Assembly (NCBI GenBank): GCA_023264445.1
Contig: JAHFMN010000002.1
Location: 66,365 to 130,364, forward strand
DNA: 64,000 bases
Origin: Candidatus Kaiserbacteria bacterium
GTDB taxonomy: Bacteria > Patescibacteriota > Minisyncoccia > Phycocordibacterales > Phycocordibacteraceae
Direction: 5' to 3'
Under the pieces are notes generated by a model that saw only the letters and a program-made list of their open reading frames with translations, was not told where the DNA came from and made no database searches. A program made the position numbers and the translations under genes. Position 1 is the stretch's first letter. Each line of letters opens with the position of its first letter. Shown piece by piece: positions 2,528 through 19,086 of the stretch.

Positions 2528-3628
2528 TTACTGATTCATCGGAGATACAAGATAGAGAAGTGATGGATCATTAACACCTTTAATAATGAGTGGGCGGCCG
2601 ATACCAGCTGCGGTTATTGAGAGACTTTCTGCTGTAGTAAGAGAAAATATTGTTGAGAGATAACGATGATTAAAGGAAAGTTCAATATCACTTCCTGATA
2701 TTTGTGCTGGAAATGTTTCGGATGATTCTCCCACTTCAGTATTTTTTGCAAAGAAAGAAAAGATATTCTTTTTTTGATTAAAGCCAATACGTATTTTTTG
2801 GAATGAATCAGAAAAGATGGTTGTTCGCTTTAATCCTGCTTCAAAATCTTTTCGAAGAATAATTGCTTCTACAACCGATTCCTTTGGTATGATTTGTCGA
2901 TAATCGGGATAAATTGCGTTCGTGAGTCGTGAAACTATCATCCCGGTATTCCCTACGAATGCACATTGATGGTCATCGAACGATAGAATAATATCCTCAT
3001 CAGGTAGTGCTTGAGCTATATCGAGCGCATTTTTTGCAGGAATAAGGAATTTTCCTTGTGTACCTTTATTTGAAAGAGGTATTTTTTTCTCCGTAAGCCG
3101 GAATGAATCAGTTGCAACTGCAGTGAGTAATCCTCCTTCTATAGAGAGATAGAGACTTGAAAGTTCTGGGCGAATAGTTGAAGTTGATGCACAGGAAGAA
3201 ATTGAATTAAATAGGTTCTTTAAAAGAACCCCTGAAAGTACGATTCTATTTTTTGGATTTTCTGGAAATGGTATAGAAGGAAAATCGTCGTAGGGTATGG
3301 TTTTTATTGAACTTTTCCCCATACCACTCTTAAGAGAAATAATATCCCCTATATGTTCAAGAGATATTTTTCCTTCTTGAGTCAGAGAAGTAGCTATTTG
3401 TTGTAATAGAATTGCAGGAATTGCTACGACGCCATGAGAAATAACTTCTCCTTCTAGTTTTAAATCAATACCAGTTTCGAGATTGGTAGCTCTCATTTTA
3501 ATACCTTCATCCCCCGCAACTATAAGGATAGAAGAAAGAACAGGGAGTGTAGTTGTCTTTCGTTCTGCAAAACGAGAGACGGTATGTACTGCTTCAGAGA
3601 ATGTCTTTTTTTCTATTGAAATATTCAT
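2528..3628 (-). CDS. dnaN: DNA polymerase III beta subunit (sliding clamp)
   Basis: MNISIEKKTFSEAV...LPVLSSILIVA clamp-like N-terminus; lies downstream of dnaA; internal ATG at 3628 chosen because DnaA boxes lie in the longer ORF's extension. Confidence 0.88.
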   Translation of the reverse strand: MNISIEKKTFSEAVHTVSRFAERKTTTLPVLSSILIVAGDEGIKMRATNLETGIDLKLEGEVISHGVVAIPAILLQQIATSLTQEGKISLEHIGDIISLKSGMGKSSIKTIPYDDFPSIPFPENPKNRIVLSGVLLKNLFNSISSCASTSTIRPELSSLYLSIEGGLLTAVATDSFRLTEKKIPLSNKGTQGKFLIPAKNALDIAQALPDEDIILSFDDHQCAFVGNTGMIVSRLTNAIYPDYRQIIPKESVVEAIILRKDFEAGLKRTTIFSDSFQKIRIGFNQKKNIFSFFAKNTEVGESSETFPAQISGSDIELSFNHRYLSTIFSLTTAESLSITAAGIGRPLIIKGVNDPSLLYLVSPMNQ

Positions 3629-3739
3629 ATCATTCCTATTAGGAGTGTGGATAAGTGGAGAAAGAAAAAATACGATGTATATATTGATTATTTTTTCCAC
3701 CTATACACGAATATAGTGTGGATAGATAGTAGGAAAAGA
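3629..3739. promoter_or_regulatory. putative oriC segment: DnaA boxes TGTGGATAA (3646-3654, perfect) and TGTGGATAG (3717-3725) flanking an AT-rich stretch (3661-3700)
   Basis: dnaA-dnaN intergenic position; consensus DnaA box; AT-rich candidate unwinding element. Confidence 0.5.
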
Positions 3740-5098
3740 TCATACAAGAAGTGTGCGGATATTTTGAATTTCTTTTGCGAGCTCATTATCAACAACTACT
3801 TCACGCTTTATTTTCTCACATGAGTGGATAACTGTTGTATGATCGCGCCCACCAAGTTTTGTTCCGATAGTTGGATACGAAATACTAAAATCCTCACGAA
3901 GAATATACATAATGACTTGCCGTGGGCGCACCACTTCCCTTCTTCGGGTCTTTTCATAAATACTTTCTTCATCAATTCCATAATATTCAGCAACCTTATC
4001 AACCACATTTTTCACAGATATATTTTTCTGGGGTCGGGTGAATGAACGTAATGATTGTCTCACTTCAGCAATATCAGGGGAAGATCCTTTTACTTGAGCA
4101 TGGCAAATAATACTATTCACCATTCCTTCTAATTCTCGAATAGATCCTGATATAGAAGTAGCGACATATTCAACCACCTCATCCGACAATAAAATACCGT
4201 GTAACGAAGCCTTTTTCCGAACAATAGTCATACGTGATTCAGGATCAGGTTCACCAATATCAATAGTCATTCCGCTTGCTAAACGACCCTTCAAGCGCTC
4301 GGCGATATCAGGGATAGCAGCAGGCGCTCGATCAGAAGAAAAGATAATCTGCTTATTTGTATCGTGGAGGGTATTGAATAAGTGAAATAGTTCCTCCTCC
4401 GTCTTCAATTTTTTAGAAAGAAACTGTACATCATCCATGATAAGAAGATCATATTGACGGTATTTATCTTTAAATCGATTTGCTGTTCCTGCTTGCACAG
4501 AATCGGTGTAATCAATAGTGAATTTTTCAGAGGTAAGATAAAACACTTTACGTCCTTGGTACTGTTTTTTAAATTGATTACCGATAGCTTGAATGAGGTG
4601 TGTTTTACCACGGCCAGTGTCGCCGTAGATGAAGAGAGGATTATAGGTAATACCTGGACGATTCAGTACCGCTTGTGCCGCTGCGTATGCAAGATTATTG
4701 AATGAACCAATAACAAACGTATCAAATGTATAACGAGGATTCAGATTATCGCTTTTATTAATATAAAATTCATCCAACGGAAGTTCCAAAATACCCCGTA
4801 AAGGGTTTTTGTTCTCTTTTTGGGACTTATTACGATGTTCATCCTTAACGATGAGATATTCAATGTTCCGAAATTCATATGAAATATCTCGGATAATTTT
4901 TAAGAGTAGAGAATGAAATTTCTTCAGGTACCAATCTTTAAAGAATTGGCTGGGTACACCGATATATACCACTCCATCCTCCCCTATCTTCACAATAAAA
5001 CTGTTGCGAAACCATGTATTGAAGTTTGCTGGCGATATAGAAAGTTCAATTTGAGTCAGAACGTATTCCCAGAGTTCCCGTGGATTCCCTTTGTCCAT
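3740..5098 (-). CDS. dnaA: chromosomal replication initiator DnaA
   Basis: AAA+ Walker A GDTGRGKTHL, Walker B LLIMDDVQF, C-terminal DnaA-box-binding domain (TLGGRDHTTVIHSCEKI); start at ATG 5098 (MDKGNPRELWEYV). Confidence 0.92.
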   Translation of the reverse strand: MDKGNPRELWEYVLTQIELSISPANFNTWFRNSFIVKIGEDGVVYIGVPSQFFKDWYLKKFHSLLLKIIRDISYEFRNIEYLIVKDEHRNKSQKENKNPLRGILELPLDEFYINKSDNLNPRYTFDTFVIGSFNNLAYAAAQAVLNRPGITYNPLFIYGDTGRGKTHLIQAIGNQFKKQYQGRKVFYLTSEKFTIDYTDSVQAGTANRFKDKYRQYDLLIMDDVQFLSKKLKTEEELFHLFNTLHDTNKQIIFSSDRAPAAIPDIAERLKGRLASGMTIDIGEPDPESRMTIVRKKASLHGILLSDEVVEYVATSISGSIRELEGMVNSIICHAQVKGSSPDIAEVRQSLRSFTRPQKNISVKNVVDKVAEYYGIDEESIYEKTRRREVVRPRQVIMYILREDFSISYPTIGTKLGGRDHTTVIHSCEKIKREVVVDNELAKEIQNIRTLLV

Positions 5099-5198
5099 GA
5101 TGAGATGGAGTATACGCCGTCCCGGAATGAATAGCACGTGTGGTGTTTCGGGGAGAACCTGTTAATATTATGTGTATAACCTAATCTTGCATTCCAGT

Positions 5199-14770: not shown

Positions 14771-15376
14771 ATGACGTACACACCAAGAGTATTTAATTTA
14801 CCAGTGCTTGAGGGGATTTCAGAAAAGCAGATTAAAGTGCATCTCGCGCTCTACGAGGGCTATGTGAAGCATGTGAATCTCATCATGGGCATGTCCCAGA
14901 TGTACGGAAAGACCGATGATGAAGGCGGTAAGTATTCTCTCGCTGAATTCCGCCGCCGATTCGGTTTTGAGTTCGATGGGATGCGCATGCATGAATACTA
15001 TTTTGAGCAGTTTGAGGGCGAGAAAGGAGGAAGCCCCGATTCAGTGCTTGCGAAAGCGGCGGCCGAGAAATACGGAAGCGGCGAAGAATTTCTTGCACAC
15101 GTGAGGCAAGTGGCAGCGACTCGCGGCATCGGCTGGGTAGTGGTATATGCCGATCCCGTCGGAAAGACTATCCATACGGTATTCGTCGGCGACCACGAGT
15201 TTGGCCAGCTTTCCGGCCTCCCTGTCCTCCTCGCACTCGATCTCTGGGAGCATGCGTACATGGTGGACTATGTGCCAGCCGACAAGAAAAATTATATTGA
15301 TGCGTTCTTCGCCAATCTCAATTGGAGCGTCGTTGAGAAGCGTTTTGACGAGGCGATGAAAATAAGCGCCGCATAA
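14771..15376 (+). CDS. sodA: Fe/Mn superoxide dismutase
   Basis: C-terminal DLWEHAYMVDY and ANLNWSVVEKRF signatures; start at MTYTPRVF (14771) gives about 200 aa; the listed ORF extension is probably non-coding. Confidence 0.78.
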   Translation: MTYTPRVFNLPVLEGISEKQIKVHLALYEGYVKHVNLIMGMSQMYGKTDDEGGKYSLAEFRRRFGFEFDGMRMHEYYFEQFEGEKGGSPDSVLAKAAAEKYGSGEEFLAHVRQVAATRGIGWVVVYADPVGKTIHTVFVGDHEFGQLSGLPVLLALDLWEHAYMVDYVPADKKNYIDAFFANLNWSVVEKRFDEAMKISAA

Positions 15377-16788
15377 GCGGCGAGGACGAGCAGGAACGGA
15401 AAACGCTCGATAGTAAAGGCCGCAAACGGGAGCGCGGAGCTTTTCTCCGCGATAAAGATGAAGTATTTCATGAGTACGTACACGGGATAGCCCGCGATTT
15501 TTGCAATGAGCAGCACGAAAGGCCCGATGGTCATGCCGACGACGCCCGCGAGCGCGGCGAAAGCCATTGCAAATGGCACAAACGGATTCACAAGCAGATT
15601 CGCAGGCAGAGCGACGAGCGAGAAGAGACCGATGTCGTAAAGAAGAAGCGGTAATACCGAGATCTGCGCCGCGAGCGTCGTCGCGACAATGTTCCTCCAG
15701 AAGGAGTGCAAACGCATCAAGCGTGCTTCGATGAGAGGCGAAAGCCAGATAATTCCCGCAGTCGCGGCAACCGAGAGGCCGAATCCGGGGTCGAAGACGA
15801 GAAAGAGAGGATTCCAGATGAGCATCAAGAGGACCGCCACAAGAAGCGCGCGGCTCGCGGCGTACGAGCGACCTGTCGCGCGTGCATAGAGTGCGATGAT
15901 GGCCATGATGGCGGCGCGTATGGCCGTGGCAGAGATACCTGCAATGCCGACAAAGAGGAGGAGTGCCGCGCCGCCGGCGAAAAACTGCAGGCGGCGCGGG
16001 AGCTGTAGGAGTACGAAAAAAGCCATCACCCACTCGGCCACGACCATGATGTTGTATCCGGAGAGGACGATGATTTGCACGAGCCCCGAGCGCGTGAAGG
16101 CATCCTTCAGTGCAGTCCCTAGCCCCTCCTTCCCGCCGATGACGATGCCGCCCGCAAGCGCCGAAGCGGGCTCCGGCAAGGCAAGAGCAAGTCCATCGAG
16201 GAATGAATGCTTAATGCGCGCGAGCGCGGCAGGAATCGAGTACCAAGGCGCGGGCTCTACCGTATATATGGACCCGAATTGGATAAGGAAGCGGATATTC
16301 CGCGCCTCTAGGTATTTATCGTAGCGGAAGGTACGTCCGCCATCCGTTTCAAACGCCTGCGGCAGAGAAAGCGTCCCGTATACGCGCACGCGGTCGCCGA
16401 CGCGCACATCGGCAGAAAGCGGCATGACCGCAAGTGCGCCGACCTTCTCACTACCCTTCTCCACAACGAGCGCGATGCGCTGATTCTTCTCGCGCACATC
16501 TGGATCGCTCACGACCACTCCGTCATACTGCACACGATGCCGCAGGTCGCTCGCAAATGCTTGAGGCAACGGTGTGTCAGCAATCGTCGCACGCACCGTT
16601 CCGAACACGACGCAGATACAAAACACCGCACCAAGTGAGTACACAAGGCGCGGCTTCAAAAACGCCGCGCCGCCAAACAGCGCCGCGAGTAGCATTACAA
16701 ACAAAACTGCCTCCCATCCAAAATTAAAAACCGACTGCACCCCCACCCCACCCACAAACCCTGCAACAATGGCGATAAGAGCCTCCAT
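15292..16788 (-). CDS. comEC: ComEC/Rec2-family DNA internalisation channel (no metallo-beta-lactamase domain)
   Basis: N-terminal DUF4131-like region plus competence domain, GLVQIIVLSGYNIMVV, multiple TM. Confidence 0.78.
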   Translation of the reverse strand: MEALIAIVAGFVGGVGVQSVFNFGWEAVLFVMLLAALFGGAAFLKPRLVYSLGAVFCICVVFGTVRATIADTPLPQAFASDLRHRVQYDGVVVSDPDVREKNQRIALVVEKGSEKVGALAVMPLSADVRVGDRVRVYGTLSLPQAFETDGGRTFRYDKYLEARNIRFLIQFGSIYTVEPAPWYSIPAALARIKHSFLDGLALALPEPASALAGGIVIGGKEGLGTALKDAFTRSGLVQIIVLSGYNIMVVAEWVMAFFVLLQLPRRLQFFAGGAALLLFVGIAGISATAIRAAIMAIIALYARATGRSYAASRALLVAVLLMLIWNPLFLVFDPGFGLSVAATAGIIWLSPLIEARLMRLHSFWRNIVATTLAAQISVLPLLLYDIGLFSLVALPANLLVNPFVPFAMAFAALAGVVGMTIGPFVLLIAKIAGYPVYVLMKYFIFIAEKSSALPFAAFTIERFPFLLVLAAYAALIFIASSKRFSTTLQLRLAKNASI

Positions 16789-16919
16789 AGTTCTATGCTA
16801 CCGCGGAACAAGCACAACACTCTCATTAGGATCGCGCTTCCACAAGGCCCACCCACAAAGACTCTTGACGCGCTCGCCATGCTGGTATAACATATCCGTT
16901 ATGTTAGCAAAAGCACCTT

Positions 16920-17291
16920 ATGGAATATAACTTTTGGGTAAACCAACAAGGGCGGTCCCCCGTCCTTGAAGACCTAAAAGTGGTGTCCAGTGCCGATGCT
17001 AACTCAGGAAAGGCCTACTGGCTTCAGTTAAGTAAGGTCAGGAAGTATTCCTATCCACAAATGGCGGGGAAACTCATTAAAAAGCTTAAAGGCGAAAACC
17101 CATATAAGATTTTCGAGCTGAGATTTTCCCTGCCCCGGAAGATAGCGAGGACCTTCTGTGTTATTGGACGGGATTCAACATTGTGGCTGCTGCACCTAGT
17201 TATTAAGAAAAAAGATGGAACGAAGCATTCCGACATAAGGGTTGCCGAAGAAAGAGCAGGAATCCTTGAGCGCGCAATTCATTATTTATAA
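16920..17291 (+). CDS. RelE/HigB-type (phage Gp49-like) toxin
   Basis: KIFELRFSLPRKIARTFCVIGRDSTLWLLHLVIKKKDGTKHSDIRVAEERA matches the Gp49/HigB family; toxin-first order. Confidence 0.6.
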   Translation: MEYNFWVNQQGRSPVLEDLKVVSSADANSGKAYWLQLSKVRKYSYPQMAGKLIKKLKGENPYKIFELRFSLPRKIARTFCVIGRDSTLWLLHLVIKKKDGTKHSDIRVAEERAGILERAIHYL

Positions 17292-17302
17292 ACGAAGATT
17301 AT

Positions 17303-17755
17303 ATGAAGATCCAACACGCAAAAGAAATATTGCTTGGAGATGACAAAATCCGGAAATCATTTGAGAAAAATGATTTGGACAGCATCAAAATAAATGTTGG
17401 TCTGCAAATTCTTGAATTGAGGCTAATTAAAAATCTTACCCAGAAACAATTGGCTAAGAAGATTGGTACTAAACAGCCCAGCATCGCGCGCGTCGAAAGG
17501 GGAGCTACTGCTCCGAGCTTAACGTTCCTCTATAAGATTGCATCTGCAGTTGGTACGGACTTGATTCCACCAAAATTTGCAATCGTTGAAGAAAACGAAC
17601 TCCGAGATCAACTTAATTCGCTTGTGGTCGAGTCAGTCTTCCGTATTGCTGAGCACAAAACGGAGCCAACGGATAACTACAGAGTCTCCCAGGAAAGTAG
17701 AAATATTATTGGAAGCTCCACCAGTCCATTAGTCAATGCAAATAAATTCATATGA
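17303..17755 (+). CDS. XRE-family helix-turn-helix antitoxin (HigA-like) with a C-terminal extension
   Basis: HTH LTQKQLAKKIGTKQPSIARVERG. Confidence 0.65.
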   Translation: MKIQHAKEILLGDDKIRKSFEKNDLDSIKINVGLQILELRLIKNLTQKQLAKKIGTKQPSIARVERGATAPSLTFLYKIASAVGTDLIPPKFAIVEENELRDQLNSLVVESVFRIAEHKTEPTDNYRVSQESRNIIGSSTSPLVNANKFI

Positions 17756-18219
17756 AGAACAGAATTCGTTACATGGGAGGAATTATCTGCGGATCATCCT
17801 CCATTGATCAAGGAACACAAAACCTCTCGGCGTTTAATTTCATTGATCAGGTTACTGCAGATATAAAATCCACCGACCCGATAAAGACCACAAAGTCACT
17901 AGAAAAAATTACCATCCCCTTTTCTTTCCAGGTTATTTCTCTATGGAAGAGAAGTAACGTTTCTGATTTCGGAACGGAAATAAAAGGAACCGCCATTATC
18001 GAAGAGATCGATCCCCAGGGAAAAATTCTACAAACAATTCCCGTTGAATTTCTAATTCCTGTGACGGCAATAAGAGCACGACATATCTTAAAAGTACAAG
18101 GAATGATGGTCAGCACCACAGGGGAATATTGCTTTCAGTTTAGAGAGGTTGACGAAAAAGGCGAACGGTCCGAACCTATCGCAAAGCTTTGTTTTGATGT
18201 CGTTCTTAATAAATCTTAA
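17752..18219 (+). CDS. hypothetical protein translationally coupled (ATGA) to the antitoxin gene
   Basis: ORF only; AT-rich islet. Confidence 0.45.
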   Translation: MKNRIRYMGGIICGSSSIDQGTQNLSAFNFIDQVTADIKSTDPIKTTKSLEKITIPFSFQVISLWKRSNVSDFGTEIKGTAIIEEIDPQGKILQTIPVEFLIPVTAIRARHILKVQGMMVSTTGEYCFQFREVDEKGERSEPIAKLCFDVVLNKS

Positions 18220-18242
18220 AATCTAACAGCAAGGAGGTGGTG

Positions 18243-18662
18243 TCACGCACCGCGGTCCATGGCGGCGTTGGCGAGGGCGTCGGCGTCGGAGTTTTCGGCG
18301 CGCGGGACGTGCGCAAAGGAGACCGTGCCGAAGGCGGCGGCGTTGTGCGCGAGGCGCGCCTGCTGTTCCTTCATGACTGGATGCTTCACCTTATAAAGCC
18401 CGTTCATCTGCTTCACGACGAGCTCGCTATCCATCTTCACCACGACCTCCGTCTTACCGCGCTTCCCTTCCGGGACGAGCTTCAAGAGCTCTTCAAAGGC
18501 GAGGATGACCGCTTCGTATTCTGCGAAGTTGTTGGTGCGCGTTCCGAGGAATTTGGAGACGCTCGCGACTGAATTGCCGAGCTCGTCGCGTATCATCGCG
18601 CCCGCGCCCGCTGGCCCCGGGTTGCTCCGCGAGCCGCCATCGGCATGAATAGTGAATTTCAT
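18243..18662 (-). CDS. rnhA: ribonuclease HI
   Basis: MKFTIHADGGSRSNPGPAGAG...NFAEYEAVI...HVPRAENSDADALAN. Confidence 0.85.
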   Translation of the reverse strand: MKFTIHADGGSRSNPGPAGAGAMIRDELGNSVASVSKFLGTRTNNFAEYEAVILAFEELLKLVPEGKRGKTEVVVKMDSELVVKQMNGLYKVKHPVMKEQQARLAHNAAAFGTVSFAHVPRAENSDADALANAAMDRGA

Positions 18663-18706
18663 GCGCGTACTATACACCCAGTATCATTCGGCAGAATAAT
18701 ACGATA

Positions 18707-18774: not shown

Positions 18775-19086
18775 GTGAAAAAGCACATACTCCTGGCTTC
18801 TACGCTCCTTTTCATCGGCACGGCATCTGCGCAGGGCTACCGTATGCCACAGCAATACCGCCCACCGGTAATGCAGCGCCCGATGATTCAGCCGTACGCC
18901 GGTGCTACCCCGATGTACTCGCAACCGTTTCAGTACTATGCGCCGCAGGTATACCGGTACCAGCCGCCGGTGATGGTGCCGCCGCCTCAGTACCAGATTC
19001 AGCCGTACGCCGGTGCCACCCAGATGTACCCGCAGTTCCTAGTTCGACCGCAACCGCCGCCGGTTATCTTTTACTACTACCGGTAA
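18775..19086 (+). CDS. small secreted Tyr/Pro/Gln-rich repeat protein
   Basis: Signal peptide MKKHILLASTLLFIGTASA; two copies of an IQPYAGAT-MY-Q repeat; about 30-bp DNA-level repeat. Confidence 0.6.
   Translation: MKKHILLASTLLFIGTASAQGYRMPQQYRPPVMQRPMIQPYAGATPMYSQPFQYYAPQVYRYQPPVMVPPPQYQIQPYAGATQMYPQFLVRPQPPPVIFYYYR

Follow-up and report, generated by a model that had tools for sequence, protein, structure and literature searches.

Three co-oriented open reading frames (ORFs) on the plus strand lie between comEC and rnhA in a 64,000-nucleotide stretch of Candidatus Kaiserbacteria DNA (contig JAHFMN010000002.1; the whole stretch is referred to here as the window), at the positions given in a first-pass annotation of this DNA. 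That annotation had read them as a toxin-first HigB/Gp49 gene, an XRE helix-turn-helix (HTH) gene and a coupled third gene, together forming an addiction or defence module rather than a plain two-gene toxin-antitoxin (TA) pair. Profile matches bear out both the identity and the order of the pair, and the start codon of the 155-residue third ORF does overlap the antitoxin stop codon, as ATGA at 17752-17755. The module comprises the following features, where L007 is the corresponding locus of Parcubacteria bacterium GW2011_GWA1_56_13.

16865 to 16893, plus strand: sigma-70-like promoter, matched by the scanner at 9 of 12 positions
16888 to 16906: probable operator, a perfect inverted repeat TAACATA-N5-TATGTTA overlapping the -10 element, with an identical repeat in L007
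16920 to 17291, plus strand: toxin gene, 123 residues, Gp49/HigB (RelE superfamily; PF05973, 36.5 bits against a cut-off of 23.9)
17303 to 17755, plus strand: antitoxin gene, 150 residues, with HTH_3 at residues 37-87 (Pfam E 4e-14)
17303 to 17596, plus strand: HigA-like antitoxin core, residues 1-98, a conserved N-terminal segment and the XRE/HTH_3 domain
17597 to 17755, plus strand: antitoxin tail, residues 99-150 and the stop codon, variable and polar, ending ...NANKFI, a proposed ChAD-like docking element
17752 to 18219, plus strand: third gene, 155 residues, ATGA-coupled to the antitoxin gene, a predicted all-beta Ig-like sandwich, related to DUF6941 either as a distant member or as a sister

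The best solved relative of the antitoxin is the 97-residue HigA chain 6AF3_B (E 5.7e-7), residues 18-87 of which align with residues 20-87 of the query, and the antitoxin is therefore HigA-like with ~50-60 extra C-terminal residues. The extension had been described as a 70-residue C-terminal domain, a description that does not survive: it is a non-conserved tail of ~52-60 residues rich in Ser, Asn and Thr, and antitoxin homologues align over 45-85% of the query only. The ~52 tail residues are probably unstructured as well as variable. No solved homologue of the window toxin is detectable by sequence; a PADLOC scan gave only a weak NsnC match for the toxin (E 9e-4) and only generic HTH matches for the antitoxin. 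The toxin gene stands upstream of the antitoxin gene in all relatives looked at, as it does in the window.

Upstream of the toxin gene both elements of the proposed TTGACG...TATAAC promoter are present, although the choice of -10 element is less clear. The -35 element is TTGACG (16865-16870); TATAAC (16886-16891) would leave a spacer of 15 nucleotides and has TGg just before it, but the scanner favours TAACAT (16888-16893) at a spacer of 17 nucleotides. When five divergent loci from separate genomic contexts (the window, L007, L004, L001 and L008) are aligned, TTGAC, ATAACAT and ATAACATATCCGTTATGT are invariant. The sequence farther upstream is unalignable among the five, which places the left end of the conserved module at the promoter. 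A conserved repeat over the -10 element is the expected mark of an antitoxin-autoregulated operon, and the HTH antitoxin is the probable ligand of the repeat.

The third protein itself matches nothing in Pfam (E <= 1), NCBIfam or PADLOC, and a word-indexed search recovered just four close relatives. An exhaustive profile search, of the kind that the first-pass annotation had proposed, returned 832 representative proteins at E <= 1e-3 (220 at E <= 1e-10) and so defines a conserved family; among the matches listed (150 of the 832), nearly all are single-domain proteins of ~140-170 residues. Pfam DUF6941 (PF22091), whose members are likewise single-domain and of similar size (~140-165 residues), is matched weakly by 96 of 119 aligned relatives (best E 3.3e-7) but not by the window protein, and some database relatives bear a precomputed PF22091 label. 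PHROGs and PADLOC scans of the relatives gave nothing meaningful, a literature search on DUF6941, PF22091 or the combination of DUF4258 with DUF2283 found no paper, and no description of this third component was found in the literature or in defence catalogues. The 832 relatives, a ratio of nonsynonymous to synonymous substitution (dN/dS) of 0.08 in a close pair of relatives, and a confident structural model together identify ORF3 as a real gene.

That model, computed with AlphaFold2 from an alignment of 53 sequences (predicted local distance difference test, pLDDT, 90.9; predicted template-modelling score 0.83), contains nine beta strands and no long helix. An earlier model from 5 sequences was set aside, as its pLDDT was 59.6 and its fold matches were generic. 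The closest solved folds are the sandwiches of RhoGDI, PDE6delta and UNC119 (template-modelling, TM, score 0.40-0.50, identity 7-12%), which probably reflects a generic Ig-like fold resemblance of the modelled structure. These beta-sandwich proteins bind lipid moieties and bury the lipidated terminal segment of their client proteins, but they are eukaryotic. Trp-65, Arg-108, Arg-110 and Tyr-126 of the sandwich (W65, R108, R110 and Y126) are nearly invariant and, speculatively, could form a candidate pocket for the aromatic residues and the C-terminal carboxylate of the antitoxin tail. Two other readings of the N-terminal region were rejected: a lipoprotein or secreted N terminus (MGGIIC) has no lipobox by eye and the segment is a confident beta-strand, and a catalytic Cys-His function for the conserved N-terminal motif was dropped because the His and the Trp are unconserved in the window's own clade. 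Among predicted structures, the best matches (BFVD, TM 0.58-0.73) are uncharacterised proteins of ~135-165 residues encoded by Anoxybacillus phage A403 and by uncultured siphoviruses, so the fold is also present in phages of other bacteria.

The triplet is conserved as a unit and occupies different sites in the chromosome. Gp49, HTH and third genes lie between ftsH and a LapA-domain gene in L001-L003, beside RNase H in L004, where the toxin is truncated, and in another context in L008, an uncultured bin; in L013 and L017-L020 a family member follows a more distant antitoxin homologue. L007 has the identical sod-comEC-triplet-rnhA-recJ site, with flanking proteins 59-83% identical to those of the window, and in the window lineage the triplet is older than the split from L007. 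All relatives whose source is named belong to the candidate phyla radiation (CPR): Parcubacteria, Kaiserbacteria, Shapirobacteria and Microgenomates. Annotated phage and plasmid collections gave no tblastn match and IMG/VR a single viral contig (L101). At L020 (1-5477) the triad sits inside phage-like DNA with a serine recombinase and a small terminase, and a ClpP gene starts 2 nucleotides after the third gene. The toxin of L004 (1601-1885) has decayed to 94 residues with a divergent end, and in L012 and L044 the upstream sequence, although over 1.6 kb long, contains no toxin ORF; all three keep the antitoxin and the third gene.

The base composition does drop between comEC and rnhA, as the first-pass annotation had noted. 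The GC fraction is 0.425 over 16801-18200 against 0.55-0.58 on both sides, 300-nucleotide windows give 0.38-0.47 within the triplet and 0.52-0.63 around it, and GC at third codon positions (GC3) is 0.49, 0.41 and 0.38 for toxin, antitoxin and third gene compared with 0.57-0.79 for comEC, rnhA, recJ, sod and HIT. The L001 triplet keeps a low GC too (~0.40-0.45 in a background of 0.52-0.58). The horizontal acquisition that had been proposed needs qualification. As the triplet occupies the same comEC-rnhA site in L007, a horizontal origin is not recent, and the hallmarks of a mobile element were not found at the triplet (no tRNA, no nearby integrase and no flanking repeats longer than 7 nucleotides). 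Moreover, low GC alone is no proof of foreign origin in this genome, because dnaA and dnaN (2528-5137, minus strand) are poorer still, with GC 0.36-0.39 and GC3 0.22-0.32 against a window mean GC of 0.53. The opposite picture, for which the first-pass annotation had allowed, of a third ORF unconserved with the pair and a GC within genome norms, was looked for and is not what the data give.

A further 80 loci were added by a metagenome scan and a family hidden Markov model then identified the third gene in 99 loci, the locus searches having used alignments narrower than the 119-sequence set. In 95 of the 99 the third gene is directly preceded by a tightly coupled gene on the same strand, most commonly with a 4-nucleotide overlap or a gap of 0-30 nucleotides, and the other four lie at contig ends. 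Relatives carry the triplet in at least four further genomic contexts, and all 95 assessable loci have an antitoxin gene immediately before the third gene; the latter is thus no passenger but a conserved part of the module, as had been supposed. The genes that precede it belong to three unrelated antitoxin families (HTH, 62; DUF4926, 17; DUF2283, 15), with one other, and the toxins before these are Gp49 in 50 loci, DUF6883 in 14 and, in 13, a family of 93-95 residues with only weak or faint DUF4258 matches. A neighbour-joining tree of third proteins shows at least 10 switches of TA class, with near-identical third proteins attached to different TA families. A fourth type of pair is seen in L099 (1331-2941) and in the viral L101 (4863-6456), where a DUF7689-like protein of 171-172 residues is followed by a protein of 216-228 residues for which there is no Pfam match.

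The antitoxins linked to the third gene are long for their families. DUF4926 antitoxins measure 96-139 residues against a Pfam domain of 57, DUF2283 antitoxins 89-114 against 49, an excess of 30-80 residues in these two classes, and HTH antitoxins are mostly 121-179 residues against the 97 of the solved HigA. Ser, Asn, Thr and Tyr are over-represented in the tails. An aromatic residue at positions -6 to -4 combined with Leu or Ile at -1 occurs in 41% of the antitoxins; the figures for control ORFs, toxins and third proteins are 10%, 24% and 3% (antitoxins versus controls, Fisher p 1.6e-7). When tails from different antitoxin families are compared, those whose third proteins are at least 50% identical score a mean of 24.1 by Smith-Waterman, against 19.5 +/- 0.8 when permuted within class (0 of 5000 permutations); L035 (HTH), with ...EKVKFSTESKESKAE..., and L045 (DUF4926), with ...EELRFNMDTPKSKAD..., are an example. 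Cross-family tail similarity thus tracks the kinship of the third proteins, which means that tail and third gene travel and evolve together. These sequence comparisons suggest that tail and third gene behave as a portable cassette that has been joined repeatedly to unrelated TA pairs in CPR bacteria (Patescibacteria).

Within the clade of the window, the tail and the third protein are the parts that diverge most rapidly. Between the window and L007, protein identity is 76% for the toxin, 87% for the antitoxin core, ~6% for the tail and 58% for the third protein, and nucleotide identity falls from 0.72-0.83 to ~0.38, the background level, exactly at 17600-17750; across the third gene it is 0.47-0.77, below the toxin, the antitoxin core and the flanking rnhA. 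This pattern suggests that tail and partner have undergone either cassette replacement or accelerated evolution. In the close pair L004/L007, however, dN/dS is 0.14 for the tail and 0.11 for the toxin. Because the tail is under purifying selection in this pair despite its ~6% identity between the window and L007, it is a functional sequence with a fast turnover; the third protein is likewise under purifying selection.

An antitoxin extension of this kind has a precedent in the toxin-antitoxin-chaperone (TAC) systems, in which SecB-like chaperones work with HigBA, MqsRA and HicAB pairs by way of a C-terminal antitoxin extension, the ChAD, that is variable and transferable (PMC5105189). The ChAD renders its antitoxin chaperone-dependent and can be transplanted to other antitoxins (PMC5105189, PMC6377645); it is recognised through aromatic residues, and the chaperone acts as a phage sensor for which a phage protein competes by means of similar aromatic motifs (bioRxiv 10.1101/2024.02.24.581848; compare CmdTAC, PMC11618068). 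The present module shares with TAC systems such as M. tuberculosis HigBA1-SecB(TA) (Rv1955-57), E. coli HigBAC and CmdTAC the gene order of toxin, antitoxin and third gene, a toxin-first HigB/HigA-type pair, a variable C-terminal antitoxin extension with an aromatic-rich recognition pattern, a third component that serves several unrelated TA families, and an extension and third gene that are transferable together. It differs in that the third protein is an all-beta sandwich of ~150 residues, SecB-like in neither sequence nor predicted fold, and in part in its partners, which include DUF6883/DUF4926 pairs and pairs with a DUF2283 antitoxin and not MqsRA, HicAB or CmdTA; the named examples are all from CPR bacteria and any chaperone activity is putative. 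To our knowledge, the third protein of a TAC has until now always been a SecB homologue. As this defining feature fails, the system should not be filed as a member of TAC.

Other known systems are less close. The two-gene HigBA of Streptococcus pneumoniae (PDB 6AF3) also has a HigB toxin before an XRE-HTH antitoxin and a palindromic operator over the promoter, but the window antitoxin is ~50 residues longer at its C terminus and is followed by a conserved, coupled third gene. Three genes in one TA operon are likewise found in omega-epsilon-zeta, paaR-paaA-parE and pasABC. The third component is a DNA-binding regulator in the first two and an enhancer of neutralisation in pasABC; here, in contrast, the HTH sits in the antitoxin and the third protein carries no DNA-binding signature.

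On balance, and with confidence a little past the even point, we favour the interpretation that the triplet is an autoregulated three-gene type II TA operon that works in a TAC-like manner with a different third protein. The proposal is drawn from the downstream position of the third gene, the variable extension, the unrelated TA partners, the co-transfer and the aromatic residues, all of which match the SecB-type pattern; the resemblance of the sandwich to RhoGDI, PDE6delta and UNC119 is a further but weak pointer. By family membership, the Gp49/HigB toxin would be neutralised by the HigA-like HTH antitoxin, which probably represses its own operon by acting at the conserved inverted repeat that overlaps the -10 element. 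Comparative genomics suggests that the coupled beta-sandwich protein binds the antitoxin tail, and this binding would control the stability or activity of the antitoxin, presumably in the protective direction. By analogy with SecB-TAC, a role in phage sensing may be inferred and, speculatively, titration of the third protein, for example by a phage protein with a similar short aromatic motif, could free the toxin. In a wider form, which we put forward tentatively and consider possible rather than likely, the family of ~150-residue Ig-like sandwiches would be a second, independently evolved addiction chaperone and sensor for type II TA systems: it would read a short aromatic/aliphatic motif at the end of a disordered tail, tail and partner would form a plug-in cassette shared among at least four unrelated TA pairs, and competition by an invader would release the toxin.

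Several results weigh against the TAC-like interpretation in either form. A SecB-like identity for the third protein is ruled out by profile, hhalign and model evidence: there is no Pfam SecB match (E <= 1), SecB is not among the 25 families commonest in the 119 relatives, hhalign of ORF3 against a hand-entered E. coli SecB sequence gives a probability of 0.1%, and the model lacks the long helices of the SecB type. As there is no similarity to SecB, the word chaperone can be applied to the third protein by analogy only, and its fold matches are generic Ig-like sandwiches. The aromatic/aliphatic end motif is present in just 41% of the tails and is weak in the ...NANKFI of the window. The covariation between tail and third protein is modest, and shared ancestry or the composition of related genomes could explain part of it; likewise, the tail-less state of the two-gene relatives was judged only from Pfam domain lengths and one solved HigA. 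Finally, the loci without an intact toxin (L004, L012 and L044) mean that the antitoxin and third gene may have a role that is independent of the toxin.

The linkage, the tail and the covariation would fit equally well a third protein that works in the opposite direction, as an anti-antitoxin or protease adaptor that binds the same tail and either delivers the antitoxin to a protease, as SspB does, or inactivates it, and so arms the toxin. Many tails end in an aliphatic residue, which recalls C-terminal degrons, and ClpXP degrons have been described at the ends of ChADs (bioRxiv 10.1101/2024.02.24.581848); the ClpP gene directly after the L020 triad also points this way, although this adjacency is seen in one locus only. 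A destroyer of the antitoxin that is made constitutively from an ATGA-coupled gene would, however, give a self-poisoning operon unless finely balanced, and the toxin-less loci that retain antitoxin and third gene are easier to explain by a protective third protein. We therefore regard the adaptor as unlikely. It is somewhat less probable again that the third protein acts on the toxin, as a second neutraliser or enhancer like PasC in pasABC. Its gene is always co-transcribed with the TA pair, and tripartite TA systems with auxiliary neutralisers are known, but such a protein would need to recognise at least three to four structurally unrelated toxins, it is retained at loci with a truncated or missing toxin, and the feature that is shared and covaries across classes is the antitoxin tail, not the toxin.

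That the window holds an ordinary HigBA pair, with ORF3 a passenger on its promoter or an independent neighbour that the TA pair merely stabilises, is very improbable, even though ORF3 alone matches no defence, phage or Pfam model and its fold is generic. A passenger would not be expected to stand directly after the antitoxin at every assessable locus, with three or four TA families and in many genomic contexts, nor to need tailed antitoxins whose tails covary with it.

The genes on either side of the triplet are housekeeping genes, and there is no defence island at the window locus.

15292 to 16788, minus strand: comEC-type competence gene (Pfam Competence and DUF4131)
18243 to 18677, minus strand: RNase H gene (rnhA), the right-hand flank of the triplet

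Neither an Rfam RNA nor a terminator was detected at the triplet. Between rnhA and recJ lies an ORF of 103 residues (18775-19086, plus strand) with a signal-peptide-like N terminus and Pro/Gln/Tyr-rich repeats (…PQQYRPPVMQRPMIQPYAGATPMY…); it has no Pfam match and is missing from the syntenic L007, where rnhA and recJ abut. Over the first 10 kb of the window GC rises gradually from 0.37 to 0.52 and the cumulative GC skew reaches its minimum at ~5.6-7 kb, and the start of the window is probably a replication origin region. The composition gap is odd for core genes such as dnaA and dnaN, and could alternatively flag a chimeric assembly.

TAC is the clearest case of a third protein that turns a TA pair into a phage sensor. 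If the TAC-like interpretation is true, a tail combined with a tail-binder would be a general solution, reached by convergence, for connecting TA modules to a trigger, and a family of more than 800 representative clusters without a literature would gain a testable function. Heterologous tests in E. coli should be straightforward, because three genes and a tail of ~50 residues make a compact set of parts. The same interpretation would also supply a defence or addiction mechanism in CPR bacteria, which are hard to culture and about whose immunity little is known, and, if the third protein is indeed a sensor, the triads would constitute a major uncatalogued abortive-infection defence of these ultra-small bacteria.

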